A DNA stretch of 64,000 bases from an uncultured archaeon (GCA_963799775.1 CAWCYD010000003.1:416001-480000), one strand, 5' to 3'; numbered from the stretch's first letter, positions 48,099-64,000 are shown. The notes: generated by a model from the sequence alone, not told the origin. Numbers and translations are program-made.

Positions 48099-48144
48099 GG
48101 ATGTCTCCCCGCGCGCCTAAAGCCGGGTTAAAACTCTTCTCAAT

Positions 48145-48930
48145 CTAGGGGACGGAATCGGCCAGCTTCCTTCCGAACACGAGATACGCCGTGTGGCCGA
48201 CCATGAACGAAGAGGGCCGCGTCATGCCGACCCTGGCCTCTATGTTTCGCATGATGAGCTCGAGCGTCTCGGTGGCCGTGAAACCTTCGTCGTGGAGCGT
48301 CTGGACGAGCCTCTCGGCCTGGTTCATCGTCGGACAGATCGCCGCGAGCATCGCCGAAGGCGCGAGCGCCTCCTTGACAGGCTTGACGAGCTCCCACGGG
48401 TCGCCCATGTCGAGAAGGGCGGCGTCAAGGTCCCTCTCCTCGACGCCGAGCTTTGCGTCCTGGCTCTTCAGCGTGACGTGCTTGTCGAGTCCGAAGCGTT
48501 CAAGGTTTCGCTTCGCACCTCCTTGAAACTCTGGATTGACGTCATAGCTGTAGACATGCCCCTCGGGGGCCACCGAGAAGGCCATGGCGGCGGTCGCGGC
48601 CCCGCTACCTGTGCCAGCCTCGAAGACCCTGCTCCCAGAGTGGATCCCACACTTGACAATGATCATCGCGATGTCCTTGGGGTAGATGACCTGCGTCGTC
48701 CTGGTGAACTTCATGACGATGTCCTCGAGGGTGGGCTTGAGTATGGTCAGCTCGTCGTTGAGCGTGGTTAGGCCACGTATCCCATAGTCCTTCCCCACCA
48801 GCGAGGTCAGGTCCAGGATGCCCAGGTGGGTGTGCAGCTTCGGAGTCTCTGAGGGGCGGACCAGCCACTTCCTCCTCTTGTCCCGGTAGACGAGAATGAA
48901 GGAATCCTCTCTGATCTTCTCGGCAGGCAT
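48145..48930 (-). CDS. trmI: tRNA (adenine-N1)-methyltransferase
   Basis: HTHLG, TQVIYPKD, EAGTGSG, LDMGDPW, VGHTAYL. Confidence 0.93.
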   Translation of the reverse strand: MPAEKIREDSFILVYRDKRRKWLVRPSETPKLHTHLGILDLTSLVGKDYGIRGLTTLNDELTILKPTLEDIVMKFTRTTQVIYPKDIAMIIVKCGIHSGSRVFEAGTGSGAATAAMAFSVAPEGHVYSYDVNPEFQGGAKRNLERFGLDKHVTLKSQDAKLGVEERDLDAALLDMGDPWELVKPVKEALAPSAMLAAICPTMNQAERLVQTLHDEGFTATETLELIMRNIEARVGMTRPSSFMVGHTAYLVFGRKLADSVP

Positions 48931-48955
48931 CTTCTCGGCCGCCTCCCGTGGCTTT

Positions 48956-50257
48956 GTTAACTCTTTGGTCCATGCGCGATGGAGCCAACTTGCCTGGCAT
49001 CTGCTCCTGGGATCACCGTAGTCGTGGGTTTCCCGTTCACCGCTTCACATGCAGGCCCTTCCGCCCCTTCCTTTACAGGAGGAGGCAGGGAACTGGCAAG
49101 CCTTGACAGCCCCCTATCCGCCAGATTGTCCACCGCGTTGCCGTCGCGGTGGACCCATGCCTCGCATCTCGAGCACCAGAGGTGTCTCCTGTGCCTGAGG
49201 TCTTTTCTTTCCGGTCTGCGGAGCTTCTCCCCACATGTTGAATGGATAGATGAAGACCCTCTGGTCTCTCCCCTTGTCAGCTTAACGACGGCCACTCCCT
49301 TGGTCGCCGCCTTGTAGCCCAGCATCTCGTAGGATTTTCTGTGAGGCCACGTGTTCATCCTGAACCTATAGTCTCTACCTTTTCCGTTCCCCTTCCGGTA
49401 CATCTTGTTGATGCCTGTGATGTCCTCGAGCGCGATCGCAGCTCCGGTCGACCTCGCCTCCTCGACGATCTGGTTCGTCGCGCGGTGGAGCATCTGATTG
49501 GTCCTGTCGTTCGCCTTCTTCCAGTACTTTTGCGCGAGCCTTCTCCGTATCCGCACGTCGTCTCTCTTGAAGGAGCCCAGAATCTCTCGTGTCGTCTGCT
49601 TCACTTTCACTATTCTTGAAAGGTCGATTTGCTCGAACCCTTCCCGGTTGCCGTACGTTAGGTTCTTCTCGTTCCTGTCCACGCCGAGGACTCGCCTCGT
49701 CTCGATCGGTTCGACCTCGGTCGAGTAGCATATTGCGATCCTGTCCTCCGTGATCGTCATGCTCCTCATCTTGATGCCGGGCAGGGAGACTTTGGAGAAG
49801 GCATACCTGTTGAGCTGCACCATCTCAAATCTCTCATGACCCAGGGAGACGAAGAGCTTGCCTGTTACCGTTACGAAGAATCCTCTGACTATGCATGCGG
49901 CGAGCTTCAGCGGCTTCCGATATCTGACTCGGATGCCTCTCTTCTCGCTCTTCCTTCTGCTCCTGAGGACGGCGCATGCGCGAGTGATCACTGCGACCTT
50001 GAAAGACGACGGGAGGTCTACGTCGCGGATCGATCGGTAGAACCCTTTCATCTGCCTCCTGTTATTGATACGGTTACTCTCAGCGTACTGGATCGCGCTG
50101 TATGTCAGTGTCCTGCATTGAGAGAGGATGTTGCGAAGGCGATAGCTATCGTGGGGCTGCCATACAGATAGCGTCCCGATGGGCACGAGTTACCATGATT
50201 CTGGACTAGATAAGCGCCCATGCCCAGCCTCCTCTGGCGATGAGCCGAGGAGTTGAC
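48956..50257 (-). mobile_element. TnpB-only element, copy 2
   Basis: Homologous to 825-2129 including the non-coding ends; bounded by GTTAAC and GTTGAC. Confidence 0.8.
48957..50186 (-). CDS. tnpB: TnpB RNA-guided endonuclease
   Basis: Same intact RuvC D/E/D motifs; close paralog of 839-2056. Confidence 0.9.
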   Translation of the reverse strand: MPIGTLSVWQPHDSYRLRNILSQCRTLTYSAIQYAESNRINNRRQMKGFYRSIRDVDLPSSFKVAVITRACAVLRSRRKSEKRGIRVRYRKPLKLAACIVRGFFVTVTGKLFVSLGHERFEMVQLNRYAFSKVSLPGIKMRSMTITEDRIAICYSTEVEPIETRRVLGVDRNEKNLTYGNREGFEQIDLSRIVKVKQTTREILGSFKRDDVRIRRRLAQKYWKKANDRTNQMLHRATNQIVEEARSTGAAIALEDITGINKMYRKGNGKGRDYRFRMNTWPHRKSYEMLGYKAATKGVAVVKLTRGETRGSSSIHSTCGEKLRRPERKDLRHRRHLWCSRCEAWVHRDGNAVDNLADRGLSRLASSLPPPVKEGAEGPACEAVNGKPTTTVIPGADARQVGSIAHGPKS

Positions 50258-50375
50258 AAACTTCCTCCCATTAACGTTTATATGAGTTGCAGGTATATTA
50301 GCGAATAATAGGCGAATCAGAACCGATTCTTCCTAGAACCTTTCCCTAGTCTCTATTCCCTCTTTTATCTCTCGA

Positions 50376-50594
50376 ATGTCTATCAATGAACGGCTCCTAA
50401 GAATCAGCCAAGTTGCTGTCCTTCTGAACGTAGGAAAGTCCACCGTCTGGAAATGGACGAAGGAGGGCAGGATCATGTCGGTCAGGCTCCCTGCTGCTCA
50501 GGGCTCGAAGAGGGCTGGGGCCATCCGGATACCTTCGACCGAGGTCTTCAGGCTGCTCGAGGGGAAGGACCCGAAGGCAATGCAGGGGTTCTAG
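50376..50594 (+). CDS. excisionase/MerR-like HTH protein
   Basis: LLRISQVAVLLNVGKSTVWKWTKEGRI..RIPSTEV. Confidence 0.85.
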   Translation: MSINERLLRISQVAVLLNVGKSTVWKWTKEGRIMSVRLPAAQGSKRAGAIRIPSTEVFRLLEGKDPKAMQGF

Positions 50595-50606
50595 GGGGTG
50601 TCTTCG

Positions 50607-50897
50607 ATGGAGCCCACTTCACCCGAGGGCGAAGTCCTTGATATCGTGACCCTGTCCAGCAAAGGCCAGCTCGCTCTCCCTGTCGAGGTCAGGGAGCGGA
50701 TGGGCCTGTCCAAGGGAGCCAGGCTCATGGTGATCCTCGCAAAGGATGGCAAGTCGGTCATTCTGAGGACCGTCAGCATCGAAGAGGTGGCCAAGTCTCA
50801 CATGTGGTACCTTTCCAATGCCCGCCGTCGTCCTGGCCCTGCCAAGAAGCAAGAGCCTATCCTTGACTCAAGGCCACAGGTAGAGAGCAATGGCTGA
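50607..50897 (+). CDS. AbrB/MazE/SpoVT DNA-binding protein
   Basis: VTLSSKGQLALPVEVRERMGLSKG. Confidence 0.88.
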   Translation: MEPTSPEGEVLDIVTLSSKGQLALPVEVRERMGLSKGARLMVILAKDGKSVILRTVSIEEVAKSHMWYLSNARRRPGPAKKQEPILDSRPQVESNG

Positions 50898-51097
50898 ATC
50901 GAAATAATTTCAGATTACGTATAGCCGCGCTTCGCGCTTACGTAGATAAAGAGAGATTATAGGAAAGCGAAAAAGAGAGAAGCTGTCGCCTATATTACCG
51001 GAGTCCATCAACCAAGTCACCGGGCTGCCAAGATCAGGGCGAAAGAGGCCCGGGGGGTCCAGGCTCAGAAGCCCAAGCTGCAGGCTCGGTCGACGGA

Positions 51098-51121
51098 GGC
51101 ATAGGGCCTAATTCGCCCATT
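51098..51121 (+). repeat. 24-bp direct repeat, copy 1
   Basis: GGCATAGGGCCTAATTCGCCCATT, identical to 52304-52327. Confidence 0.9.
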
Positions 51122-51145
51122 AGGTTATCCCCGGTTGGATAACCT
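51122..51145. promoter_or_regulatory. inverted repeat, probable operator
   Basis: AGGTTATCC-N6-GGATAACCT directly upstream of the wHTH-TM gene. Confidence 0.55.
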
Positions 51146-51174
51146 CATAATGCGGACTCCCCTCAGACAGGACG

Positions 51175-51693
51175 TTGGCAGAATCCGCCGAGGTGCCTAA
51201 GCCCCCAAATCCGAAGAAGAGGAGGCTCCCCCTATCCAAACTCCTCATTCTCTACTTCCTCTCGAACCGGGGCTACGACGGAAGCATCCTTCAGCTGAGC
51301 CGAGACATGGGTTACTCGACCGATAGCAGCGTCAACAAGAACCTCAACGATCTCATTCGAGATGGCTACGTAACTGACGGCCCGGTCTACAAGCTCACCC
51401 CGGCTGGCGTGAGGGAAATCCAGTTCAGTAGGCTCCCGGAAGTCTTGTGCTACTTGATCCTTGGCCTCGGCATATCGGTGCTACTCATCTCGGGTGAAGG
51501 CGTTGCCGGTTTCGTTGCGGAGAGGACCGCTTCGCTCTCGACCTTCGGGCTAGGGGTGGCCATCGTAACCATCGGTGTCTTGTTTCTCGGAGCAAAGAAA
51601 CGGGTCTACGATGATTTCCTAGGCCTTAGGAAGCCTCTCTCACATGCAGAGAGCGCCCCTCGCGAGGACAGAGAGCCCGACTCCGCCGGGTAG
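51175..51693 (+). CDS. winged-helix protein with two C-terminal TM helices
   Basis: SILQLSRDMGY..SVNKNLNDLIRDGYV..YKLTPAG followed by two hydrophobic segments. Confidence 0.75.
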   Translation: MAESAEVPKPPNPKKRRLPLSKLLILYFLSNRGYDGSILQLSRDMGYSTDSSVNKNLNDLIRDGYVTDGPVYKLTPAGVREIQFSRLPEVLCYLILGLGISVLLISGEGVAGFVAERTASLSTFGLGVAIVTIGVLFLGAKKRVYDDFLGLRKPLSHAESAPREDREPDSAG

Positions 51694-52055
51694 AGGTAGA
51701 ACGGCCCCCCTCGCTATAGGTGGCGAGGGGGTGAAAAAATCGACCTGCCAATACCGATATGGGCTCTCTTGATCGGCATAGTCCTTCTCGTTCTCGCGGC
51801 AGTGGCTGCCCCGGTGCTGTCGTTCGGGGTGATCGCTGTCCTCGTAGTGCTTGGAATACTGTGCCTGATCGTCGGAGTGCTCACAGCTCTTAGCTAGCCT
51901 GAGGAGAGGATGCCCTCTCCTCCTTAGGCATGGAAGGTCGGGGCAAAAACAGTTCTCCAGGCTATAGGGAAAGCACGCGTTGGGCCAAAAACGGAGCCCT
52001 TTGTCCATGATTCCAGACTCGTTGCATTATCTCTGAACTCAATACTTGGAAGGCC

Positions 52056-52310
52056 GTGAAGTTGAACAGAAGGCTAGTCCTGATCGTGGTTAGTGTCGCA
52101 GTAGCTTCCGCTCTAGCCACTAGTCTCTGGTACTCGCACGGCGGACCCTCAGACTTGACGACGAGTGTTACGGTACACGCATCGGGCTCTCCGGGGTGCA
52201 TTACGGAGGCTGCAGGAAACTACGGATCGGTCGAGTCATGTACTTTCTCCGACGGGCGTACTATCGATTGCGTGACCGCAGGGCAAGCCTTGAGCTGTTT
52301 TGGGGCATAG
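52056..52310 (+). CDS. small secreted or anchored Cys-containing protein
   Basis: Signal-like N terminus, four Cys; stop codon lies inside the 24-bp repeat. Confidence 0.6.
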   Translation: MKLNRRLVLIVVSVAVASALATSLWYSHGGPSDLTTSVTVHASGSPGCITEAAGNYGSVESCTFSDGRTIDCVTAGQALSCFGA

Positions 52311-52327
52311 GGCCTAATTCGCCCATT
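52304..52327 (+). repeat. 24-bp direct repeat, copy 2
   Basis: Identical to 51098-51121. Confidence 0.9.
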
Positions 52328-52343
52328 TCCTCCATCCCGCGGC

Positions 52344-52556
52344 TCAATCTTCGTCATCGTCGGTGTCAGGATCCATGCCTCGCTCGACCGCGCAGGCATG
52401 GCAGTAGGCCCGCTCGTCGACTCCGCTCACCAAGTCCCTGCGGCCTTGATGATAGGCACCCACTTTTGGAATCGTCTTTCCGCAGCCCGCGCACGAGGTG
52501 TAGGCGCTCATAGGCGGGTCGGGCATCGAGCTACTGTAAGTCTCTTTCCCGGTCAT
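52344..52556 (-). CDS. small zinc-finger protein
   Basis: CAGC...YCHAC with an acidic tail. Confidence 0.6.
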   Translation of the reverse strand: MTGKETYSSSMPDPPMSAYTSCAGCGKTIPKVGAYHQGRRDLVSGVDERAYCHACAVERGMDPDTDDDED

Positions 52557-53003
52557 CTGGCCCGGCGTCTCGAGCTTCGGCCAGGCTCGAGGCTGCTCAC
52601 CCCTCAGGCTTCAACGCGAGCCAGAAGAGTCAGCGCGACTTTGACCTGCGACGGGACTTTGCTCGAGTCGAACGTCGGGCCTCGAATCCAAGGAGCTCCT
52701 CATGCGACTTGGCCCTCAGGGTGTGGTGCCGGAGGATCCCGTGCTCCTCCAGGCCTAGCAGCTGATCGTTGCTGGCCATCTCCGGCAGGGCGCCTGATAG
52801 AAAGCTCGACTCGCCATGAGATGAGGACTTGGACGGAGGCCTGGCGTGAGGGGATACATCGTCGAAGGCGTCCGGCGGCCCGTCGTCGAATGGAGAGGGC
52901 CTATGTCGTTTGTACTGAATCGGCTGGGAGTCGAAGAAGCTGAAGCTCATCAATGTTCAAAAGAAGGTCAGGTGCAAAAACGGTATCTTCTTTTTGAACG
53001 CTC

Positions 53004-54041
53004 AGGTGTGTCGAATAACTTCACGATCGGCTACTTTCGCGCATCGCTACTCCGCCCGCCTCTCGTCTAGGGGTTCGAGATCCCGACGAACAGGTTGTAG
53101 ACCTGTGCCTTCAGCAGGAGCTCGTTCACCATGTTCTCCCACTTCACCGAGGTTATGTGCTCCCCGAACGTACGCTTGAACGAGGATATCGCCGACTCGA
53201 CCCTCGCCCGCTGACCGTACCCGTGCCTCCTCTTCCACCGCTCCCTGTCCCTCAGCTGCTCCATCACGACGAGCTTCCTGGGCATGCACCCGAGAGAGTG
53301 CACAGAGGCGTCCTTTCGCACCTTGACCACGGGCTCTATCCCTTTCGAGTCCAGGTAGCTGAATATCTCCCTCGAGTCATACGCCCCGTCCGCTATCGCC
53401 CTCGTGACGCTCGCCTTCGACGACGCTCCCTCCACCAGAGGGACGAGCATCCTCCTGTCGTGCACGTCGTCCTTCGTCACCTCCATCGAGAGTATCTTCC
53501 CGGTCTTGACGTCCACGGCCAGGTGGACCTTGATGAAGCCTCGCTTCACCGCCCACATCTGCCTTATCCACTCCCCTCGGTTGGAGACCTTGATCCCGGT
53601 CGAGTCAACCGCTATGGTGACGTCTTCGTCTGGGTCTACGTTCGGGTCCAGCTCTATCTTTACTCGCGATATCCGCCACCACATCGTGGTGTAGTCTGGG
53701 ACCTTGAGCCCTTCCACGTGTCCCGCGAACATCCTGAGGAACCCCTCCAGCTCCCGGTACGGGAGCAGGTAGACGTGGATGGCTGCGAGCATACTCATTA
53801 ACGAGTCTGGATAGCGATATCTCGCTCCTTCCTTCTCCTCGTTGAGCTTCCCTAGTTCTGCGCTCCATCCAGATAAAAAATCGGTATCGAAGAGGAGCTC
53901 TCCCCTCCTCACCAGCGACTCGTTGTACTCCTTCCAGTTGCGCTTCTTCTTCGTGACCACGCCATCATGAGAGGATTCCCTCTCCTCTCATCCACCTGAG
54001 CGAGGGAACCTTGACCAAACGATTAGTTATTCGACACACCT
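53004..54041 (-). mobile_element. IS5-family insertion sequence
   Basis: Perfect TIR AGGTGTGTCGAATAACT (53004-53020 / 54025-54041); TSD GAACGCTC (52996-53003 / 54042-54049). Confidence 0.93.
53067..53960 (-). CDS. IS5-family transposase
   Basis: NWKEYNESLVRRG, PDYTT, VDSTGIK, KVHLAVD, ADGAYD, YGQRARVE..SSFKRTFG. Confidence 0.95.
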   Translation of the reverse strand: MVTKKKRNWKEYNESLVRRGELLFDTDFLSGWSAELGKLNEEKEGARYRYPDSLMSMLAAIHVYLLPYRELEGFLRMFAGHVEGLKVPDYTTMWWRISRVKIELDPNVDPDEDVTIAVDSTGIKVSNRGEWIRQMWAVKRGFIKVHLAVDVKTGKILSMEVTKDDVHDRRMLVPLVEGASSKASVTRAIADGAYDSREIFSYLDSKGIEPVVKVRKDASVHSLGCMPRKLVVMEQLRDRERWKRRHGYGQRARVESAISSFKRTFGEHITSVKWENMVNELLLKAQVYNLFVGISNP

Positions 54042-54087
54042 GAACGCTCGAAAAACTTAACTCTCAGAACGTTGGTTTCTGCCCAGG

Positions 54088-54465
54088 ATGGAAAGAGGAA
54101 CCAAGGCGGCCATTTCGGTGTTCGCCGTTCTGACGGTCGTAGGGTACCTCATCGACAGCAACCTCGTGCTGGATTTCTACTTCGCGACCATCTCAGGCTT
54201 CATCGCCTTCGGGGTAAAGCGAGCCACGGGTTGGAGTTTCACAAAGGCGTCGGCGGTGTGCCTCTTTGGGTCGATGCTCGTCCCATTCTTCGCGCTGCTG
54301 CTTTACTTCCAGTATGTGGCTGGTTTCCCTCCCGCCCAAACGGGCAGTCTTCTATCCGCCTACATGACTTTATTCGTGGTCGAGCGCTTCCCGTCGGTGC
54401 TTGTGGGTATCTTGGGGGGAGTTGTCTCCGACTCGACGCTCGCTGTCTTGGGTCTGTCGCCCTAG
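54088..54465 (+). CDS. orphan membrane protein
   Basis: Four hydrophobic segments. Confidence 0.6.
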   Translation: MERGTKAAISVFAVLTVVGYLIDSNLVLDFYFATISGFIAFGVKRATGWSFTKASAVCLFGSMLVPFFALLLYFQYVAGFPPAQTGSLLSAYMTLFVVERFPSVLVGILGGVVSDSTLAVLGLSP

Positions 54466-54633
54466 GTTTTTCGCGGCCTGAGATATCAGGATGTCTGGCA
54501 GTTGTTGTCCATGCTTGACGGAGGCCTATTTGATTAAAAGTCCGACCGACCCTCGCTCGCCGGCGAAACGCTGACCAAAATCAAGCGCCCGAGCAATGAG
54601 ACGATCCTGTTCGTCGTCTTAGAGTTCGCTGCC

Positions 54634-55329
54634 ATGTTGGCTTTCATAGAGGCAATCGTCTGGATCGCGCAGCAAGGTTCCTACGGAATCTTCCTCGGAG
54701 ACCTCAACGCGAGCCTCACCATTCCCCCTTTCCAGGCAGTCAACGCATCCGTTGCTCAGCAAACATACCTCTTGAAAGTGGCGGGGAACTTCGCCTCTCC
54801 TCCCACAATCCCGTCTCTGGTAGAAGTTGGACTCTTCACCGTCCTTTCGGCAATCATCGGAATCGGGTTCTCTTTTGAGAAAGACCAGATCGTGGACAGC
54901 CCCCATATCGCCGGAGGCCTGACGTTTCTCGGAAAGCAACTTCGGCCACTCTTCATATCGCTCGCGACGGCGACTTTTGCGGCCTCTCTCTTCTTCGCGA
55001 CTAGCGTCGCACGCGACCGGCAGGCAATTTTCTCCGGCATTCCGCTACTTCCTGCTTCCGTACCGACCGGCCAAAGTCTTGCAGAATCCGCGGTGATCAA
55101 CGCCATGTTGCAATATCGTGACGACAAGTTCTATCAGCTCGTCCTGCTGTTGGCCTTCGGGCTCATGGTCCTTTTCTTGTTCTGCTCGCTTGCCGCCGAC
55201 CGGCAAAGCGGTACCGCGCACCCGAAGGCCCCGTACTTCACGGCCACGTTGTTCCTGCTCTCCATGGCTGTCCTGGGGCTTATCCTTGTCGTCGTCCTGA
55301 TTCTCGCCCTCTTTCCTTTCACCGGCTAA
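54634..55329 (+). CDS. orphan multi-TM protein
   Basis: Several TM segments; start probably further upstream. Confidence 0.6.
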   Translation: MLAFIEAIVWIAQQGSYGIFLGDLNASLTIPPFQAVNASVAQQTYLLKVAGNFASPPTIPSLVEVGLFTVLSAIIGIGFSFEKDQIVDSPHIAGGLTFLGKQLRPLFISLATATFAASLFFATSVARDRQAIFSGIPLLPASVPTGQSLAESAVINAMLQYRDDKFYQLVLLLAFGLMVLFLFCSLAADRQSGTAHPKAPYFTATLFLLSMAVLGLILVVVLILALFPFTG

Positions 55330-55509
55330 AGCCGGTTTGATGGACAACCCGATACTTCATTCTCAATGTCCTTGGATCCATGACAGGATATTTCGAGACT
55401 AAAGCAGGGGGATGCTTTCGAGGTTGTCCGCGAAATTTTGGATTGAAGCCAATTTCCATTGAGCGTGGGGAGCGTGAGAATTGGGGGCAAGCATGGACAA
55501 ATATGAGGA

Positions 55510-56172
55510 ATGGACAACAAGGCTATGGACCTCAGCACGGAGAAAGAAATCGATTGGATCGTAGCTGATATGAAGACGAATTTGACTTTCGCGAAAGAGA
55601 ACCACGCCGCGAGAGAATGCTTCACACAAATTACGGAACTCATGAACGACCTGATTGACCATCTTGGGGAGATTCCCAAGGAGCCATCCGAGGTCGTCAA
55701 ATCTTGCAAGTCGATTTACCTCATGAACGTCCTGATGCCGGCCAGCTTCGGCATATACATGGACTTTCTTGCCGGAAACGTTCCCGTCTGCTTCATGCAG
55801 CTACGCATGATCATCGAGTCGATGGCTGAATATTTCGAAGCGGACCGCGTCGCAAGAGCGGATATCTTCTTCTATGAAAAATTGCAGTTCTCAGCCGAAA
55901 TGCAGAAGCGGAAAAGAGAGTCGCTTTCCAAGCTGATTGACGAAGTCGATGGCGAGGCAGCCAAGGTTTGGCACAAATGTTCTGATTGGATGCACTCCCA
56001 AGCTCTCGCAAAGAAATTCGTTGAACAGGTGGCCGAACGCGGCGTTCCAGCGTGGGGGCTCGTGATTCCAATGGAGTACACGGAAGTCGACGAGCAATCT
56101 TTGGTGGAACTGACACGCAATCTGAATCTGTTTAGGACTTCGTTCTCTCGAGTCCTAAAAGGCTGGAAATGA
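55510..56172 (+). CDS. helical protein, possibly HEPN-like
   Basis: QLRMIIE and KCSDWMH motifs; lower GC. Confidence 0.55.
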   Translation: MDNKAMDLSTEKEIDWIVADMKTNLTFAKENHAARECFTQITELMNDLIDHLGEIPKEPSEVVKSCKSIYLMNVLMPASFGIYMDFLAGNVPVCFMQLRMIIESMAEYFEADRVARADIFFYEKLQFSAEMQKRKRESLSKLIDEVDGEAAKVWHKCSDWMHSQALAKKFVEQVAERGVPAWGLVIPMEYTEVDEQSLVELTRNLNLFRTSFSRVLKGWK

Positions 56173-56272
56173 GTCATCAGGGTCGGTGGATTGAGCGTGC
56201 ACCGTGAAGAGGCCGATTCAAATCACGGACAACTGAGGAAATCTCATATATGAAAGGGCGACTGATTGAACC

Positions 56273-57364
56273 GTGCCGTTAGACCTCAACACGATGGGAG
56301 GGCACGAGTTCGAGGATCTCGTGGAGAACCTTCTGGTAAAGATGGGGTTCGCCACGGAAGGCAGAAAGCCATCAGCGGATGGAGGGATCGACATAGTCGC
56401 AGTATCCTCCCTTCCCTTGGTCTCAGGTCGGTACATCATTCAGTGCAAGAGGTATGGCCACTCGGTCTCCTCTCCGATAATCCGAGACCTCTACGGGGTT
56501 GTCAGCGCGGAACGTGCCAACAAGGGCATCCTGATAACGACTTCAGCGTTCACCTCAGACGCCATCGACTTCGCCCGAGACAAGCCGATCGAGCTCATAG
56601 ACGGCAATGGGCTCATCGGGCTGCTGGGTAAGTACGGTTTGCTTGGAGACGCTGGACCTAGTCAGCCTGGCGCCCCTATTGCTGCGGGAGTCCTGCGGGT
56701 CGAGATCGCGGGCCTTTCCGACAAGTTTCGGAAGGAACTCGTCGACCTAGAGGCGCAGTTGACTCTCAAACGAAGTACGTTCGGCGATCCGAATAGGACT
56801 CAGGCATACAAGAACTACGGTGAATGGACTCAGAAGATGCAGGTCAGGATCGACGACATGGTTCGCGCCATGAACATCGTCGTGAAGAGCGTAAACGAGT
56901 TCCAGGCCTCCCAATCCCCCGAACTTTCCGACGCCAAACGGATTCGAGGTCAGGCAATCGAGCTCTTCAGCGAAATGTGCTCGACCTACTCTGAGGTCCG
57001 AAAGATCATGCCGCCCCCCGCTTTCTCGCATCATCAGCAAGTCGTGGCCAAGATTGTTCGCGACTTCATGTCGGACTTCACGGATTTTATCGCGAGAACT
57101 GAGGAGTCTCTAGAAAAGGGGGGCGGAGCGGTGGAATTCAAGCTCGAATTTCGGGAACGGGACGAGATGGCCCAGGCCATCAAGGAAGGGCAACAGGGGT
57201 TTCATGAAGTCGGGATGAGGACCGCCAAGCACCATCGTATCCGTCACACTGGAGGCCTCTTCTCAGACAATCGTCAGTGGGTGTGCAGCTGCGGATTTCG
57301 GAGCCCCGACAGGGGTGCAGCGATGGACCACCTGAAGACCTACACCGGAAGAAGGCCGTTATAG
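56273..57364 (+). CDS. Mrr-like restriction endonuclease with helical C-terminal region and C2H-type Zn motif
   Basis: EFEDLVENLL..MGF, DGGIDI, IQCKRY, GILITTSAFT..A, IELIDG. Confidence 0.88.
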   Translation: MPLDLNTMGGHEFEDLVENLLVKMGFATEGRKPSADGGIDIVAVSSLPLVSGRYIIQCKRYGHSVSSPIIRDLYGVVSAERANKGILITTSAFTSDAIDFARDKPIELIDGNGLIGLLGKYGLLGDAGPSQPGAPIAAGVLRVEIAGLSDKFRKELVDLEAQLTLKRSTFGDPNRTQAYKNYGEWTQKMQVRIDDMVRAMNIVVKSVNEFQASQSPELSDAKRIRGQAIELFSEMCSTYSEVRKIMPPPAFSHHQQVVAKIVRDFMSDFTDFIARTEESLEKGGGAVEFKLEFRERDEMAQAIKEGQQGFHEVGMRTAKHHRIRHTGGLFSDNRQWVCSCGFRSPDRGAAMDHLKTYTGRRPL

Positions 57365-57396
57365 CAACGCACAGTCGACTAATTGTTTGCACGCGC

Positions 57397-58077
57397 CTAC
57401 TGCTTCTTGTAGACGTACTCCGGGACCCCAACCAGGAGCGTCATCAGGGCCGCGATTCCTCCGGTGCGGGTCCACCAGTCCGTTGAGAGCTCCATCGCGG
57501 AGGCGACATGAACAGGGTTAATCCCAGTCACGACCTTCGTGGTTCCGTTCGCGTATTGTGCGGTCATTACCGGAGCAGAGTCGCCTGAATTGGACCACTG
57601 GATCACTGTGGTGGTGGAGTTGAGAAATGTCATTGGAGAGATGTATGGGTTGCAGTAGATCGCCCCGTCCAAGCTGGGAGTCAGATTGACACCCCACCCG
57701 CCTCCTCCATTGATGAGATATTGGTCGGTGGGTGCCTGTCCTTGAGCACCGGGAAAGACTACGGAAACGGAATCAAGGCCCTTGGCAAGGCCAGGCGACA
57801 CGCAGCCATAAGAGACCATGTTCACAGGATCGTTCTGCTCGATGGTTGAGTTCGGAGTAAGCAAGATCTCCACTGTGATGTACTCTCGGCTGCTGGCGTT
57901 TCCCAGGTATTGGCCCGCTCCGCTTACCTGAGGGTAGTGGAGCGTTATCCAGATCGGTTGAGTCGGCTGAGGCGCGTGACTAAGGTACGGAATGGGGAAC
58001 ATCGCGATGTTCGCGAAGCCTACGACGAAGACCGCAACGTACCAGGCCACAAGCACAACGCGCGTCTTTGAGGGCAA
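57397..58077 (-). CDS. membrane-anchored surface protein
   Basis: TM segments at both ends, several NxS/T sequons. Confidence 0.6.
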   Translation of the reverse strand: MPSKTRVVLVAWYVAVFVVGFANIAMFPIPYLSHAPQPTQPIWITLHYPQVSGAGQYLGNASSREYITVEILLTPNSTIEQNDPVNMVSYGCVSPGLAKGLDSVSVVFPGAQGQAPTDQYLINGGGGWGVNLTPSLDGAIYCNPYISPMTFLNSTTTVIQWSNSGDSAPVMTAQYANGTTKVVTGINPVHVASAMELSTDWWTRTGGIAALMTLLVGVPEYVYKKQ

Positions 58078-58085
58078 CCTGGTGC

Positions 58086-58733
58086 CTAGGCTCTTCGAGG
58101 CCCGCGAACCACATGGACTAGCTGAGAGAAGATGCTCGTCGAGTAGTTGTAGGGTATCTCTTCGGGCGGGCCTGACACCGTAGTAGAAGAGTTGAGACCT
58201 AGCTTGATCTTGGCCAGCTTCATCCCGATCACCCAGAACGTGATGAGGAATAGCCCTTCGCCGATTGCGCCTCCTCCCACGGTTACGTCAAACCAGCTCC
58301 TCACCAAGGGCGACGCCGAGGAAAACGGAATCGAGTGGAAGGAGGGGACGAAGAGGTTCAGCATCATCAGCGGAGTGGCAACGAGAAAGCCTCCCTTCCA
58401 TGGCCTCAAGCGCTGGACACGGCTGCTCAGCACCAGCGACAGAAAGGCGGCGAACAGCCACACCATGAAGGGAGCCGGGCTGCCTGTTGCGAGCGCCACG
58501 TCGTCCGAGTAGATCCCTGGCAGATACCAGCCGAAGAGGAGGATGACGACCCCGAGCCAACTTCCAATGGCGACCAGGACAATCCGCCGCCTCGTCGTTA
58601 GGGAGATACGCGAAGCGAGCGACGACCCCTGCTTGTAGAGCCAGACGAGCACGTTCCAGAGGGCTATCGCTATCACTCCGTCCACGACTCCCTGCAGAAG
58701 CCCGGACATCCAGGTCTGCTTGATGCGCGCCAT
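58086..58733 (-). CDS. orphan multi-TM protein
   Basis: Five hydrophobic segments. Confidence 0.6.
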   Translation of the reverse strand: MARIKQTWMSGLLQGVVDGVIAIALWNVLVWLYKQGSSLASRISLTTRRRIVLVAIGSWLGVVILLFGWYLPGIYSDDVALATGSPAPFMVWLFAAFLSLVLSSRVQRLRPWKGGFLVATPLMMLNLFVPSFHSIPFSSASPLVRSWFDVTVGGGAIGEGLFLITFWVIGMKLAKIKLGLNSSTTVSGPPEEIPYNYSTSIFSQLVHVVRGPRRA

Positions 58734-58775
58734 TTTCGCAAAAATCAGAGGTGCCGTCCTATATTTAATCGATTT

Positions 58776-59345
58776 CTAGCGCGAATATCCGACGGTGAAA
58801 TGATGGCCGAGCCGATAGAGCAGATAGGCCTCGCCACCCGCGAAGCCAAGACAGACAGGCCCCAGAAATGTGAATACAGTGTAGATGAAGTTGGTCCAAA
58901 GGTTGAGGGCCTGAGTGTACGAGGCAGAAGTCGAATAGGGAACAGTGAACGTCGCGAACGTAGCGCTGAAGAGGAATAGGAAGAGGAATCCCCCGGTGAT
59001 CAAGAGACCAAGTGTCATGAGGACCCGCGTCTTCCAGATACTTTCGACACCATAGCGCCCGCTGCTGAGCGCGTAGTTCCAGACCCGGTAGCCCACGAGA
59101 GCGCCCAGGTAGAGGCTCAGCAACAGCGGAACGACCCAGACAAACTCCGGAATTGGGTATGATGCACCCGCGATGAATACCGCCGCGAAAGCCAGCGCCC
59201 ACAGCCCCGCAATAGCTCGAGCTCCCTTCAACCTGAACCTCCTGCGATAAGGCCCGGACCGAGGACGATTGCGGTCTCTGTCTCTCGACCAGTCTCTCGG
59301 ATCGTTCCTCCTCGGTTGCTCGACGGAAGGCCGCCTGCCGGCCAT
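58776..59345 (-). CDS. orphan 4-TM protein with basic N terminus
   Basis: Arg-rich leader followed by four TM segments. Confidence 0.6.
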   Translation of the reverse strand: MAGRRPSVEQPRRNDPRDWSRDRDRNRPRSGPYRRRFRLKGARAIAGLWALAFAAVFIAGASYPIPEFVWVVPLLLSLYLGALVGYRVWNYALSSGRYGVESIWKTRVLMTLGLLITGGFLFLFLFSATFATFTVPYSTSASYTQALNLWTNFIYTVFTFLGPVCLGFAGGEAYLLYRLGHHFTVGYSR

Positions 59346-59848
59346 GTAGTAAGATATCCCGAGACAAGCTCCGGCTAGGAGGCCCGAGAAGCGGTCCTCC
59401 CGACAGCGATAATCTTTGTTGAGTCTCGTAGTAGGCCCAGATCAACGAAGGGGGGAGAAGAAGGGCCTGCCATGGAGTCTGATTTCGCTTCCAAACGGCG
59501 GCGATTCCCACTATGAGGCCAATAGGATAGAGAATCAGGGTCAGAGTCAGGAACGAGTTTGTTGAGTTGAGGAATGACGAGACATTGACCGTGCCGTTGG
59601 TGTAATATCCCGAAATCAGATTCGTCCCACTTGCGAACCATCCGAGGAAGACAGCCAGGAACCCTAGAAGTACGCCCAGGATGGCAAGGTTCCGGGGAGC
59701 GTCCAAGGGGCATTCCTGGCGGTCCAAAATTATTAAACGTGACCGCCCCAATCCCGAACGAGTGTCGGGCGGCATTTTGGTTTCTGATGCGAGCGCGCTG
59801 GTCGGGACGCCTCCTCCTTGGTCGCGCGACGTCTCGCTCAAGCGCCGC

Positions 59849-60417
59849 GATGATCATAGGGCTAGCCGGATTTGCCCTGGTCGTCTCGATGCTGATGGGC
59901 ATTTTCGGGACTGCCCCTCCGGGACCAGGAGTCGTAATCTGGCCCGTGGTCTTCTATCTCGCCCTCTTCCGCTTCTCGACAGCTGGCGGCAGAAACTCCA
60001 TCCCGGGGGCGATGTTCGTGATCTCCTACGCCGTAACCATCTTCACCCTTGGTTCATGGACTCTGTTTCTGGCGAGTGACGCAAATCCGGTCGTAGTGAT
60101 TCCGGCCCTTGCCTTGAACGGAACCTTAGGCATCCTTTACGCCTTCGGCTCGTCGCCATTCATCCAAGAGTTCCTTCGTGCCTCCCACGCACCGAACCTC
60201 CTAGCTTTGCACGGACCTGGTCGTGGTTCCTCTGCTAGCCGCCTCGTTCCTCTCAGCGTGCATGAGGTTCTCCTCAGTCGTGAAAGCTGCCCTGCTCATG
60301 TCGCTCCCGATGATTGCGCTGCCCCTTGCGGTCTACGTCTTCGACCCCCAGGAGTTCAACGTACAGGCCGCCCAAATGCTAATCGGCCTGCAGCTGGGCT
60401 GGTTCACGAACAGGTGA
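59849..60417 (+). CDS. orphan multi-TM protein (probable frameshift near 60200)
   Basis: Hydrophobic ORF from MIIGLAGF continuing in the 60223-60417 frame. Confidence 0.45.
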
Positions 60418-60555
60418 CCTTCTCATCGGCTCGCTCCTCGTCTTTGGAGTCAGCAGCCTTGCCCTCCTGCTAAGGAGGAGAGCGCGATAAGGCACGAGCT
60501 CTGGCCTGAATCGAACCTGTGGCATTTTGCCCGTTCGACTAGTTTTACTCATTGC

Positions 60556-60954
60556 ATGCAAACCTTACTTCAAACAACAACAACCCAGCAACTCACCTCA
60601 GCAATCCAAGCTCGCACATTCGCCGCAATCCTGACAGCTCTCGCCCTGGCTGACGCAGTCCTGGGCACGAAGTTCGTCGACCTCTTCACCCACTCCCGAC
60701 CCGGAATTCAACTCGTAACGGGCGTGATAATTCTCGGCGTCATCGGGATAGTCGTCGTCATCGTCTACGTCGTCGTGGCATCCTTCGGGAACAACATCCC
60801 TGCCGGGACTCTTTCGGCCGGGCAGCAGAGCACCATGACAACCTTGGTCAACGCAGCTGGGAACTCACTATCCCTAGTTTCAGTACTCGAGATAGTAGTC
60901 GCTGCTGGCTTGATCATAGGAGGCATCTTTGCTTTCCTATCCTTCGCGCGCTAG
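60556..60954 (+). CDS. putative spindle-shaped virus major capsid protein
   Basis: About 50-aa leader ending SRPG, then two long hydrophobic helices joined by an N/S/T/G/Q-rich linker, basic C terminus. Confidence 0.65.
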   Translation: MQTLLQTTTTQQLTSAIQARTFAAILTALALADAVLGTKFVDLFTHSRPGIQLVTGVIILGVIGIVVVIVYVVVASFGNNIPAGTLSAGQQSTMTTLVNAAGNSLSLVSVLEIVVAAGLIIGGIFAFLSFAR

Positions 60955-61308
60955 TTCCGGACGCGAATCCCACACCCCTTGCACAGTCGGAGGCCGCTGG
61001 AGAGCGACCTCCTTCCCTTCGTTATCTGACAGATGGGCGCCCGAATCCCTATTCGCTCTTTTCCGTGGTGAAGCCTTGCGGAGTTAGGACGAGGGATCTC
61101 TACGTGGGGATGGAGCATGTTTGCGGAATCCTCTCAGTCACACCCTGCTCGGTTCACACATGCAAGAAGAGAGAGGCGTGGGGAGAATGTGGATTTGGGT
61201 GGATCGACAGCCTTGAGCGGAGCGAACACCTTGATTTCATGACGCTCGACTGGAAGCTAAGGATTGCCGAGAGGCTTGAGGCGAGGCGCCGTCCACTGTT
61301 TCCCTGAG

Positions 61309-61698
61309 TCACTCTTCCATGGCGGCCAGAAAGCGGGGAATGGCCTGGGCCTCGATGGAGTCCGCTTCGACTAGACGAAGGGTTCCTTCTTGGCGCTGAT
61401 AGACCACTTTGACCTCAGGCTGGTAGGCGTCGAACCTCGCGAACCAGAGAAAGGTGATGTGAAGTCGACCTTTCAAACACTCCTTAGCAGAGATCTCCGA
61501 GCCGTCCAACAAGTTCCGGAGCCAAACATACCCGTGACCGTTGAAAGAACCCCAGAACACATCAGGCAACGCCGTCGGGCCTTCATGACCTATCGCGGTT
61601 CGAAGTATGGTCTGAAAGAAAGCATCCGGCTCGAGTTGACTGAAGTCATGGACAATTACTTCCCGCCAAGTTTCGAATCTGACTGTTGTCGGCATCAA
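61309..61698 (-). CDS. hypothetical protein
   Basis: Last gene of a tightly packed minus-strand run. Confidence 0.6.
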   Translation of the reverse strand: MMPTTVRFETWREVIVHDFSQLEPDAFFQTILRTAIGHEGPTALPDVFWGSFNGHGYVWLRNLLDGSEISAKECLKGRLHITFLWFARFDAYQPEVKVVYQRQEGTLRLVEADSIEAQAIPRFLAAMEE

Positions 61699-61710
61699 CA
61701 GGAAAAAGGG

Positions 61711-61947
61711 CTATCGCTTCTCGGATTTGGAGGTGAGCCACCATTCGAGATAGTCTTGATTTCTGCGGTACCTAGCCTTGGACTCGTCCTCCGCGGAGCT
61801 CACCTCCGACGTCTTCTTTCTTCGCAGCGCTGAGACCTCCTCACCGGAAAGAAAGAGCGCGCAGCCATGGCAGGAGAACCTGCGTTGGATTTTGTCGAAG
61901 ACGAGCTCTCCGCCGCATTCGGGGCAGACTCCCGCCATTCGGCTCAC
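61711..61947 (-). CDS. small Zn-ribbon protein
   Basis: CPECGG...CHGC..., DYLEWWLTSK. Confidence 0.75.
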   Translation of the reverse strand: MSRMAGVCPECGGELVFDKIQRRFSCHGCALFLSGEEVSALRRKKTSEVSSAEDESKARYRRNQDYLEWWLTSKSEKR

Positions 61948-62157
61948 TCAAAATGCGGGGAGCGATATCGCTGGAGGTGCCGAGGCTGGACCTTTCTTTG
62001 GGAATGACCCTATCCTCTCGTCCTCTGCTTGATGGGCTCCCTTCGCGTCTTCAGCTACGTGTGGGCTCCGCCCTTCAGCCACCTGGGGCGAGTGAGCTCC
62101 TTCGAGGAAGCTAGCTAGGAAGTCTCTTTCCTTCTTGGTCTTGGCCACGAGTCTCAC
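61948..62157 (-). CDS. small protein with SP(Q/H)VAE tandem repeat
   Basis: Abuts its neighbours with 0-3 bp gaps. Confidence 0.5.
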   Translation of the reverse strand: MRLVAKTKKERDFLASFLEGAHSPQVAEGRSPHVAEDAKGAHQAEDERIGSFPKKGPASAPPAISLPAF

Positions 62158-62160
62158 TGA

Positions 62161-62658
62161 CTAAAACCACGAAGGAAGCTCGAGCGGGTTCTCCTTCTTC
62201 TTGGCTGAACCGTTCCCTGGAGGCATTCCGAAATCGAAAAGGGGGCCGCCTAGCTCTGCGAAGTTCCAAGCATCCGCAGCCTTCGGACTCTTGTCGGGGG
62301 TGGTGCCCGGAAGATCCCACATCGACGGCGCTGATTCCTGCCTCTCTATTCGAAGGTTTCTTGCAGCGTTCGAAGCTGCACGCGAGACCTTCGCCGCTCC
62401 CCTCCCTCTGACGTCTCGCGCCTCCTCCCTGGCGCCACTGAGTCGGCCCGTGGGTCTGGCGATCTCTCTTCTGGCTGCCCGTCTCTCCCTCTGCAGGGCA
62501 ATCTCCCTAGTCGCCTGCTTTCTGGCGCTTTCGTGGGCCTGCTCGAGCTGCTGCCGTCGCTTCTCCTTCTCCTTGGCCGCAATCTCATTCTTAAGCGCCC
62601 GTTCCTTAAGAGCGCGGTCGACGGTGCCACGGAGACCGTGTTTTCGGGGGGTTCCCAT
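62161..62658 (-). CDS. basic coiled-coil protein
   Basis: K/R/E-rich helical N-terminal half; operon position. Confidence 0.6.
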   Translation of the reverse strand: MGTPRKHGLRGTVDRALKERALKNEIAAKEKEKRRQQLEQAHESARKQATREIALQRERRAARREIARPTGRLSGAREEARDVRGRGAAKVSRAASNAARNLRIERQESAPSMWDLPGTTPDKSPKAADAWNFAELGGPLFDFGMPPGNGSAKKKENPLELPSWF

Positions 62659-62698
62659 TTCGACTCTCTGACCACTCCAACACGCAAAAAGGGTCTGC

Positions 62699-63169
62699 TC
62701 AGCGCCGGCGACGTTTGGGCTTCACATCGAAGATATTGACGCTGCTTCCGAGCACCCCGACGTCTGGGCCCTTTGAAGGACGACTCTTCGATAGGGCCTT
62801 CGTGTCGAAGAGGCTCTTCGACCCCTTCAAGGTCGGCATCTCAACGATCAACGGCCGAGCCTTTGTCGGCTTGCCCTCTGTGAAGACGTTCCGAGAGCTC
62901 CCCAGGATCCCTGCATCTATCTTCGGCGACGTGGACGCCTTGGTGCTTCCTGAGCTCTTTGATGGTCCCTCGGCGCCGGTGCTGAGATAGCCCTTGCCGC
63001 CGACCAAAGCAAATTCCTCGATGCGTCCGGTGAGCAAGTTTCTGAAGGGATGGCGTTGCTCCGAGAACCAGGCGCCCTCCTTGCCCTTGGGAGCGCGGGG
63101 TCCGAGCGGCACGTTGAGGTTCAGGAGGATCGGAGGGAGCTCGTCGCCTTTGGGCTGTTTGAGCGTCAA
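62699..63169 (-). CDS. basic low-complexity protein with internal duplication
   Basis: DAGILGSSRNVF / DVGVLGSSVNIF; KRRRR tail. Confidence 0.55.
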   Translation of the reverse strand: MTLKQPKGDELPPILLNLNVPLGPRAPKGKEGAWFSEQRHPFRNLLTGRIEEFALVGGKGYLSTGAEGPSKSSGSTKASTSPKIDAGILGSSRNVFTEGKPTKARPLIVEMPTLKGSKSLFDTKALSKSRPSKGPDVGVLGSSVNIFDVKPKRRRR

Positions 63170-63452
63170 GACTCAGGGTCCTCGATGGACATCAAGAAGC
63201 GTCCCAAAATATGCTTCAGCCTCCCAGCTGAAGGCCTCCATCTGGACCCGGTCTCTAGAAAAAGTTCTCAGCCCCACGACCAAACGGGTCGCCGTGAGCA
63301 AGGGCATGAGCTCAGCCCTCATCGCCGGTCCCGGTTCCCAGTTCACGATGTCAGAGTCACCAAGACTCTCCATCGTAGCGAAGAACTTCTCGCTGCGGTA
63401 GGCCCTGAGAAGCTTGAGGTAGCCGAACCGAAGTGCGCTCCACATCTGCGGT

Positions 63453-63914
63453 CTACTCGACAAAACGCGATTCGGGTTCCTGAGCTCTGACGAGGATTCG
63501 GGTGAGGGGGCCTCGAGCGAAGGTCGCCCATTCGCTGTCCTCTCTGGCCTTGATCTTCCTCTCCTCCACCTTCCAATAGGCCTCTGCGTACTTGTCGTGT
63601 TTGCCTGGAACGACCCTGGTCAGCCTTCCCAAGATGTCGTACTCCAGGTTGTCGATGTTTTCTTCGGCCTCATATCCGCCCCAAGACAGATGCCCGGTAG
63701 CATCTCCAGCGGCCAACTCGACGGTCAGCGAGCGGTGCCATACCTCAGTCGCTATGCCTAGACTGCCGTCAGGATCGCGCCACCAGCTGCTACCGGTGAA
63801 CCAACAGGTAAGTCCTGGGTCGAGCTTCAGCCCCTCGCCCATCGTCCTTTCGAAGGCGGCCGAGTGATAACGGTGGAGATAGAGCCGAATCGCGAGACGT
63901 TCAAGGGTGAGCAT
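63453..63914 (-). CDS. hypothetical protein
   Basis: 153-aa ORF in the minus-strand run, overlapping 63173-63463. Confidence 0.5.
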   Translation of the reverse strand: MLTLERLAIRLYLHRYHSAAFERTMGEGLKLDPGLTCWFTGSSWWRDPDGSLGIATEVWHRSLTVELAAGDATGHLSWGGYEAEENIDNLEYDILGRLTRVVPGKHDKYAEAYWKVEERKIKAREDSEWATFARGPLTRILVRAQEPESRFVE

Positions 63915-64000
63915 CAGGCTCTCAGCTGAGGCTTCGCAGGAAGGGCGAAGATTGCCCTCCTATCCCAGTCAACAACCATCTGCGTCCCACATCCGGCGGG

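Follow-up and report, generated by a model that had tools for sequence, protein, structure and literature searches.

A site-specifically integrated 25-kb element of an uncultured archaeon carries a conserved hairpin membrane protein with the architecture of spindle-virus capsid proteins

The DNA studied here is a 64-kb stretch (the window; G000:C3:416001-480000) of the 2.47-Mb, three-contig genome of an uncultured soil archaeon. An earlier note, made from the sequence alone, had read the last 14 kb of the window as an integrated spindle-shaped virus of a GC-rich archaeon, centred on an open reading frame (ORF) at 60556-60954 that encodes a small hairpin-like membrane protein (hereafter the hairpin protein). 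We analysed this region together with the DNA to the right of the window (C3:480001-500000, hereafter L004, for which the window-equivalent position is the L004 coordinate + 64000) and found it to be the left 14 kb of a mobile element of about 25.3 kb, running from window 50272 to window-equivalent 75586 and precisely and site-specifically integrated between a tRNA methyltransferase gene and a TRAM-domain gene. The GC content (0.59) agrees with the note, and the integrated mobile element is there, with borders fixed to the base pair; the virus and its spindle shape found no support in Pfam models, alignment shuffles, fold searches, IMG/VR scans and comparisons with the viruses SSV1 and His1. 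Throughout, G-numbers denote the genomes of relatives, G000 the window's own genome, and L006 and L007 contigs from soil metagenomes.

The borders emerge from comparison with relatives in which the site is empty. The methyltransferase gene on the left flank and the tRNA-intron endonuclease gene on the right flank are each present in 20 of the 22 other members of the genus, and the gap between the two, 27 kb in G000, measures only 58-380 bp in G007, G006, G022 and G019. The empty site reads TAACGTTTATAT, with 12 identical bases in G006, G022 and G019; the left junction (attL, 50272-50283) agrees with it at 12/12 bases and the right junction (attR) at 10/12. The repeated core is the 10-bp sequence ACGTTTATAT, found at window 50274-50283 and, as a direct repeat, at C3 491577-491586 (L004:11577-11586, window-equivalent 75577-75586), and these are its only two occurrences in 4.94 million positions (both strands of the 2.47-Mb genome). 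Given the empty site in relatives and a repeat present only twice, we conclude that the element measures about 25.3 kb and is precisely integrated; the att repeat that the note had sought to match to 50260-50370 is thereby located. A search for att sites with words of at least 12 bases gave chance repeats only, and the 10-bp core was found through the empty-site comparison. In BLASTN comparisons with G000, all seven fetched sites, empty or occupied, lose homology at C3 464944-464949 and at 491577. The former limit lies to the left of attL, where an IS200/IS605-type insertion occupies 48945-50271 (minus strand), carries a TnpB-like gene (48957-50186, 409 aa; PF07282 Cas12f1-like_TNB, 2.8e-8) and begins where the empty-site homology stops (48944-48949); this TnpB-only insertion, 1.3 kb from host flank to attL, is separate from the element backbone and merely adjacent to it.

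The core contains the motif TTTATAT; the ATG of the TRAM gene, which is also the one in the empty sites, follows about 30 bp downstream. From this arrangement we infer that the core overlaps the TATA-like box of the TRAM gene and that the box is regenerated at attR. Integration into a tRNA gene was rejected: ARAGORN found no tRNA gene in the window or the next 20 kb, and no Rfam family reached its gathering score in 48000-64000 or in L004. The genes to the right of the element are those of the host, namely the TRAM gene, the tRNA-intron endonuclease and an ATP-dependent DNA ligase, the latter two being archaeal markers. The region itself is compositionally foreign, with a GC content of 0.52-0.58 across the element versus about 0.60 in the flanks (the drop spans window ~49-76 kb) and a codon-usage score, trained on the long ORFs of the genome, of about 0.1 versus about 0.25-0.30 elsewhere.

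Within these borders, an intact tyrosine integrase of 413 aa (L004:10324-11565, window-equivalent 74324-75565, minus strand; PF00589, 1.8e-9; phrog_1, 2.7e-21) is separated from the right junction by 12 bp, and an excisionase-like helix-turn-helix (HTH) protein of 72 aa (50376-50594, plus strand; PF12728 HTH_17, 1.1e-9; phrog_66 'excisionase and transcriptional regulator', 8.7e-8) is encoded about 90 bp inside the left one. The integrase thus lies past 64 kb, as the note had anticipated, and so do the replication gene and the ATPase. The former encodes a 591-aa superfamily 3 (SF3) helicase-like protein (L004:7088-8863), recognised from language-model clusters, of which the nearest named ones are SF3 helicase/DUF5906/D5 (0.90-0.91; unnamed ones reach 0.98), and from Walker A, Walker B and motif C-like motifs read by eye in the translation. 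The latter is a 255-aa P-loop ATPase with a ribbon-helix-helix (RHH)-like N-terminus (L004:2234-3001), which has weak matches of the HerA_C/DUF87 and AAA_22 types and a weak match to phrog_2666 'terminase large subunit' (2.4e-6). Sequence searches of the Protein Data Bank (PDB) with these two proteins gave nothing meaningful. ORFs of more than 400 aa are confined to the integrase, the SF3-helicase-like protein and a ParB-like gene, and no match to capsid, portal, VirB4 or VirD4 proteins was obtained when the ORFs submitted to each library were scanned against Pfam, PHROGs and NCBIfam; orphans make up most of the backbone.

That backbone is delineated by L006 and L007, which have the same gene order as the element: a winged-HTH protein with two transmembrane (TM) helices, a 107-aa orphan, the hairpin protein, five small minus-strand genes and a ParB-like gene. 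The first of these is in the element a 172-aa protein (51175-51693, plus strand) with weak HTH matches and two C-terminal membrane helices (hydrophobic residues 86-115 and 118-142), 63% identical to its L006 orthologue, and the 107-aa orphan (52630-52953, minus strand) is 47% identical in L006 and 85% identical in G011. The five small genes (61309-63914, minus strand) encode proteins of 129 aa, 78 aa (a zinc (Zn)-ribbon protein, 61711-61947), 165 aa, 156 aa and 153 aa, whose syntenic orthologues in L006 and L007 are 35-73% identical. The adjoining ParB-like gene reads as two minus-strand ORFs (63914-64564 and 64597-65451) that match the two halves of the 483-aa L006 orthologue, a single ORF (L013:5914-7451; ParB_N, 7e-7; HTH_ParB), at 84% and 78% identity; the split into different frames reflects either a frameshift, and hence decay, or a long-read assembly error. 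Apart from the ParB-like gene and weak Zn-ribbon matches, the whole tightly packed minus-strand run (61309-65451) is without match in Pfam, PHROG and NCBIfam.

What stands between the shared genes is exchanged. In L006 it consists of a TdeIII restriction-modification pair and HEPN, Schlafen/AlbA_2 and AbiV genes, and in G000 of an Mrr gene, membrane proteins and an IS5 insertion; overall, the defence cargo of the element comprises the Mrr-type nuclease, a Pycsar cyclase with a two-TM partner, and MazF. Defence systems are thus swapped between the element and L006 on a common backbone, and the hairpin gene, judging from its constant place in the gene order, is a conserved gene of that backbone.

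The hairpin gene (60556-60954, plus strand) encodes 132 aa: a leader (residues 1 to ~50), helix 1 (~52-77), an uncharged polar loop (~78-104), helix 2 (~105-131) and a terminal Arg. Both hydrophobic stretches quoted in the note, and the polar linker between them, are found exactly in the translation. Five close homologues (72-89% identity) were found among 5.8 billion clusters, and a profile search of 1.84 billion representative proteins returned 39 family members at E<=1e-3, 10 of them at <=1e-10. From these 39 proteins and three further close homologues we drew an alignment of 33 sequences (A2), leaving out P0004, whose C-terminus is aberrant in alignment A1, and P0015, P0016, P0018, P0020, P0022, P0024, P0028, P0039 and P0042, whose matched stretch does not cover both helices. 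In A2, Q90 is invariant and N79 nearly so. The ratio of non-synonymous to synonymous substitution rates (dN/dS) relative to the L006 orthologue is 0.08 in the core and 0.29 in the leader; the gene is real and constrained, with strong purifying selection on its core. An AlphaFold model computed with A2 (mean predicted local distance difference test, pLDDT, 77) has helices at residues 10-45, 49-79 and 88-131; a first model, made with 6 sequences (pLDDT 59.5), was discarded. One family member, P0006 (184 aa), contains the entire two-helix core twice in tandem, with two matched stretches, and recalls the VP1/VP3 pair of fuselloviruses.

The family is rare and patchy, with the gene present in 4/61 related genomes and 2/401 genomes of the class (both counts including G000), a spread that fits a mobile gene. 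In G011, a member of the same genus, a broken copy lies in a stretch ridden with insertion sequences (IS). A tblastn search with the hairpin protein of 50,697 phage and archaeal-virus records and 72,556 plasmids gave nothing at E<=10, although the low-complexity filter may mask such a protein. A weak match in a gammaproteobacterial contig (42% over 53 residues), met in a scan of genome contigs, was judged spurious. No description of the family was found in the literature searched, which does not prove that none exists.

None of these results shows the element to form virus particles. The explanation that we place first, at about an even chance of being right, sees it as a plasmid-like cryptic integrated element and its hairpin protein as a membrane protein whose role is unsettled but which builds no virion. 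Thaumarchaeal integrated elements were sorted by Krupovic et al. 2019 (PMC6563490) into proviruses, casposons, integrative and conjugative elements (ICEs), IS-like transposons and cryptic integrated elements (CIEs), the last being the majority; CIEs have the integrase as their sole constant gene, short repeats and ICE-like replication modules, with a median size of 17 kb and a range of 2.6-98 kb. By gene content the element fits this class. It has a tyrosine integrase at one end, short flanking direct repeats, an empty site in relatives, an integration site outside tRNA genes and a size near the median, together with a replication module of the SF3-helicase type, ParB, and restriction and toxin-antitoxin cargo; recognisable capsid, packaging and conjugation genes are absent from it, with the weak phrog_2666 match as the exception. 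It differs from the CIEs in that the backbone common to L006 and L007 matches no Pfam, PHROG or NCBIfam family except ParB.

Such an element could propagate as follows. The integrase would recombine the core on a circular form of the element with the same core in the chromosome, the SF3-helicase-like protein would replicate the excised circle, and the ParB-like proteins, the second of which is encoded at L004:9612-10091 (ParB family matches), would partition it. The hairpin protein would sit in the membrane with both ends in the cytoplasm and its uncharged loop outside, where it might serve as a coat, surface or exclusion protein or in some other role. SF3-helicase-like replication modules occur in both plasmids and viruses. 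The heavy defence load and the two ParB-like genes look more like those of an integrative plasmid or island than of a small spindle virus.

A tentative alternative, which we regard as possible but rate well short of an even chance, sees in the element a temperate provirus whose group is undescribed and whose virions are spindle-shaped, or else pleomorphic and membrane-based, the hairpin protein being the major capsid protein. Its leader would be cut near Arg-Pro-Gly(50), the remaining hairpin of about 82 residues would pack a shell around the excised 25-kb circle, and the basic 165- and 156-aa proteins would bind DNA. The major capsid protein of spindle-shaped viruses is the main component of the virion and has its N-terminal propeptide removed. 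We compared the hairpin protein with SSV1 VP1/VP3, five further fusellovirus pairs and His1 VP21, taken from public records. Read side by side, all follow one plan: a variable leader, a basic residue with Gly/Ala, helix 1, a loop rich in Ser, Thr, Asn and Gly, helix 2 and a short basic tail. The translation, the alignment and the helix-loop-helix of the AlphaFold model agree on a presumed mature part of about 70-90 residues with two hydrophobic helices and a polar loop, and the presence of integrase, excisionase-like, small Zn-finger, winged-HTH and P-loop ATPase genes and the tandem duplication in P0006 would also suit a provirus.

Several observations weigh against the view that the hairpin protein builds no virion. 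As in fuselloviruses, the core is nearly frozen and the leader divergent, a pattern that appears compatible with processing of the leader. Across the family the inter-helix loop averages 27 residues, is uncharged in 31/33 members (Lys or Arg occurs in the loop of only two), and is flanked by termini that are net positive in most members (N-flank 26/33, C-tail 25/33). This distribution of charge suggests that both ends are cytoplasmic and that the uncharged loop, rich in Asn, Gln, Ser, Thr and Gly, lies outside. In the ESM Atlas, beyond unnamed clusters at 0.91-0.93, the two nearest named families are PF06281 VP1_VP3 (0.84) and PF25665 His1_capsid (0.82), a proximity that we treat as a lead only. 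Two very basic proteins (the 165-aa protein, net charge +14, and the 156-aa protein, +15) and a sequon-rich membrane protein are encoded nearby, and these could be virion components. The hairpin protein looks closer to a spindle-virus coat protein than to any plasmid protein with which it was compared. Finally, scans of IMG/VR with the hairpin, ParB-like and 129-aa proteins as queries found 0 relatives, but this absence counts only weakly against a virus because unknown archaeal viruses are poorly captured there.

The comparison with SSV1 VP1 and the His1 capsid protein that the note had proposed did not, however, turn this likeness into homology. At E<=10 neither PF06281 VP1_VP3 nor PF25665 His1_capsid matches the window protein, and the 25 families with most matches across the 33 sequences of A2 include neither of them, although the models find their own proteins (SSV1 VP1 at 2.4e-19 and His1 VP21 at 1.5e-37). 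A single BLASTP comparison with SSV1 VP1 gave 39% identity over 44 residues (E 0.046). Alignment of A2 with a 12-sequence VP1/VP3 alignment in hhalign extended over the whole mature region with a score of 20.4 (P 0.0095), which is above the 18.5 obtained between the fusellovirus profile and His1 VP21. The capsid proteins of His1 and of SSV viruses are generally held to be homologous, and their score of only 18.5 means that the test has little power. Within-segment column shuffles of A2 scored 19.9 on average (standard deviation 3.8), with 42/100 reaching 20.4, and the reversed alignment scored 25.4; the hhalign score therefore reflects composition and layout only.

Fold searches did not discriminate either. 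Foldseek returned nothing for the hairpin model at E<=0.001 in the PDB and BFVD, and VIA-align, run against 48,161 chains, retrieved only generic helical hairpins (Z up to 9.9), a fold too simple to tell families apart. The A2 profile found neither a capsid protein nor a pilin among 177,635 PDB sequences at E<=10. So far, then, homology with spindle-virus capsid proteins is not supported, and the likeness appears to be one of architecture only.

The hairpin protein shares with SSV1 VP1/VP3 (Fuselloviridae, PF06281) a similar precursor length (132 aa versus 144 aa for the SSV1 ORF), the variable leader and conserved core, the basic residue with Gly/Ala, the two helices, the uncharged Ser/Thr/Asn/Gly-rich loop and the short basic C-terminus, and its gene likewise lies on an integrating circular element of 15-25 kb. 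It differs in its longer loop (about 27 residues), which in the window protein lacks an N-x-S/T sequon. The integrase of the element is intact after integration, whereas the SSV1 record has the integration site inside the int gene, and no other SSV1 gene has a counterpart in the element. When 47 proteins of the element and L006 were compared with those of SSV1 and His1, only two chance-level matches resulted (E 0.019 and 0.037). The 255-aa ATPase aligns with SSV1 B251 through its P-loop alone (E 0.019), and it shares nothing with His1 ORF16. A two-helix hydrophobic hairpin is also common to His1 VP21 (Halspiviridae, PF25665), the Thaspiviridae and NYMAG-47-like viruses, but the element has no protein-primed DNA polymerase, and it integrates, whereas the genomes of His1 (by its record) and of the Thaspiviridae (compared by description only; PMC8491892) are linear. 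For the NYMAG-47 group, putative spindle viruses of ammonia oxidisers, PMC10866085 describes a hairpin turn longer than in known spindle viruses and a capsid protein annotated by architecture alone; it lists capsid protein and ATPase among the conserved genes that define the proposed family and, citing Krupovic 2014, takes a conserved AAA+ (DnaA-like) ATPase beside the capsid gene as a mark of spindle viruses. No mention of spindle-type integrated elements in this class appears in the accessible parts of two recent surveys (PMC13573593; bioRxiv 10.1101/2025.08.23.671958). Also speaking against a provirus, no large tail or end-filament-like protein was found in the element, and some distant members of the hairpin family stand in settings that do not look mobile.

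Those settings bear on a further, improbable explanation, namely that the hairpin protein is cargo or a host-type small membrane protein not tied to the propagation of the element. It might, for instance, accompany secreted surface proteins in the membrane, confer exclusion or immunity, or act as a pore-forming effector. In favour of this explanation, the distant members in G042 and G033 adjoin large secreted orphans and ordinary genes of the host, and the DNA examined around them contains no integrase. The family of the neighbouring 129-aa orphan (61309-61698) also travels without any other element gene, so that co-location on the element is weak evidence of shared function. Against it, the gene keeps its place by the same conserved block in L006 and L007 while the cargo is replaced, and the family occurs in very few genomes, which would not be expected of a housekeeping membrane protein. 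The decayed copy in G011 likewise retains the broken hairpin gene, though of the remaining element genes just two can still be recognised there, neither of them from the conserved block.

Two observations on these neighbours stand on their own. In G042:C17 (L015:1770-9176), a family member with 32% identity is followed by signal-bearing orphans of 774, 1221 and 271 aa without Pfam match, a run that might represent a module of structural or adhesin genes, or else an operon for the host surface. The 129-aa family is widespread, occurring in 29/301 genomes of the order (counting G000) and a second time in G000 itself (C3:1520617-1520961); its use as a handle on related elements was dropped, as it carries no other element gene along.

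Least probable of all, and in our view very unlikely, is that the element is a remnant or minimal form of an ICE or another DNA-transfer element and that the hairpin protein is a VirB2/TrbC- or CedA1/TedC-like pilin polymerising into a conjugative pilus: its long leader (with a signal-peptide-like hydrophobic stretch in many members, at residues 22-41 in the window protein), its two hydrophobic helices, its place on a mobile element, sub-threshold matches of 4/33 members to PF04956 TrbC/VirB2 (best E 0.0046) and the small HerA/FtsK-like P-loop ATPase would allow it, but VirB4/TrbE, VirD4/TraG, VirB6 and prepilin peptidase were not detected in the element or L006, and the long uncharged loop and basic termini are the reverse of VirB2/TraA-type pilins, in which the loop is short and basic. 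Archaeal type IV pilin-like proteins, with a class III signal peptide, have a short basic leader that ends in Gly/Ala, then a single hydrophobic helix and a globular domain; in the hairpin family a basic residue with Gly/Ala before helix 1 is common, and a second hydrophobic helix stands where the globular domain would be. At curated thresholds no pilin and no host membrane family came up for the protein, and genes of integration do follow to the right of the window, so the outcome by which the note's proposal would have failed did not occur. Thaumarchaeal ICEs do carry ParB-like genes, and cryptic elements can arise from ICEs by loss of the transfer module (PMC6563490).

Most integrated elements of mesophilic archaea are cryptic, and whether they are viruses or plasmids has so far been undecidable. 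With base-pair borders, an empty site, two syntenic relatives from soil and a constrained coat-like gene, the present element makes that question directly testable. Should the provirus reading, doubtful as it is, prove right, the element would represent a new temperate virus family of soil archaea with a VP1-like hairpin shell, spindle-shaped or vesicle-like and pleomorphic; the spindle-capsid superfamily would extend to a lineage and habitat without an isolated virus, and part of the CIE class would become recognisable as proviruses, with the protein family of about 40 clusters as a search handle. Proof of a capsid role would make the profile of the hairpin family a marker for such viruses in soil data; without such a role the protein would serve as a warning against capsid calls from two-helix architecture alone, as made in published work. 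The element also offers an example of a recombination core that apparently overlaps the TATA-like box of a host promoter, and of defence swapping on a common backbone.

The left part of the element holds further genes. An AbrB/MazE-fold DNA-binding protein of 99 aa (50598-50897, plus strand; PF04014, 1.6e-5) follows the excisionase-like gene, and a small acidic Zn-finger (Zn-ribbon) protein of 70 aa (52344-52556, minus strand) has two CxxC Cys pairs in its translation and no family match. The neighbourhood that the note had sketched, with excisionase-like, AbrB and Zn-finger genes beside packed minus-strand orphans, was borne out. Next to the 107-aa orphan, an IS5-family insertion lies inside the element (52991-54054, minus strand; transposase 53067-53960; PF01609, 1.4e-28), with 30-nt terminal inverted repeats that are 90% complementary. 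The variable region beyond it encodes two multi-pass membrane proteins of 125 and 231 aa (54088-55329, plus strand), with three and four hydrophobic segments, no family match and no counterpart in L006, and an Mrr-like (type IV) restriction endonuclease (56273-57364, plus strand; PF04471, 2.5e-32; PADLOC mREase_IV, 1.5e-18) that we class as defence cargo. Three membrane proteins of 226, 215 and 189 aa (57397-59345, minus strand) are known from hydropathy and have no family match; the first, with an N-terminal anchor and 5 N-x-S/T sequons, is the sequon-rich protein mentioned above. Upstream of the hairpin gene lies a multi-pass membrane ORF (59631-60473) with no similarity to its positional counterpart in L006.

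To the right of the window, the ATPase gene is followed by a MazF/PemK toxin gene (L004:2998-3357; PemK/MazF, 1.5e-19) and a 178-aa DarG-like fragment (L004:3376-3912; a weak DarG-antitoxin-like stretch). These two (L004:2998-3912, window-equivalent 66998-67912) converge on the gene for the RHH-P-loop ATPase. A two-TM protein of 213 aa (L004:4511-5152) stands beside the Pycsar-type cyclase (L004:5158-6138; PADLOC PycC, 3.1e-22), and a 72% identical copy of the membrane protein of this Pycsar-like pair (L004:4511-6138, window-equivalent 68511-70138) is present in the decayed island of G011. A Zn-ribbon protein (L004:9089-9454) separates the SF3-helicase-like gene from the second ParB-like gene.

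A search of sequencing runs brought up one soil run that holds part of the stretch, in low-depth contigs identical to the window. The contig that crosses attL has the integrated form, although it reaches just 30 bases to the left. The circular junctions that the note had proposed to check were not seen, nor were empty-site junctions, in these low-depth contigs, which cannot reveal rare forms; no RNA sequencing run holding the stretch is listed.

A perfect 24-nt direct repeat, GGCATAGGGCCTAATTCGCCCATT, at 51098-51121 and 52304-52327, brackets the winged-HTH gene and two small ORFs; it may have arisen by duplication of a regulatory site or be a scar left by a nested insertion. The integration site, finally, is not particular to this element. 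The spot between the methyltransferase and TRAM genes (G000:C3:464931-491576) holds different inserts of 1.5-27 kb in five of the genomes compared (G000, G011, G013, G017 and G018), those of the other genus members measuring 1.5-5 kb, which identifies it as an insertion hotspot. At the same chromosomal hotspot in G017 (L035 5012-5960) lies a copy of the IS5 insertion that is 86% identical to the one inside the element.

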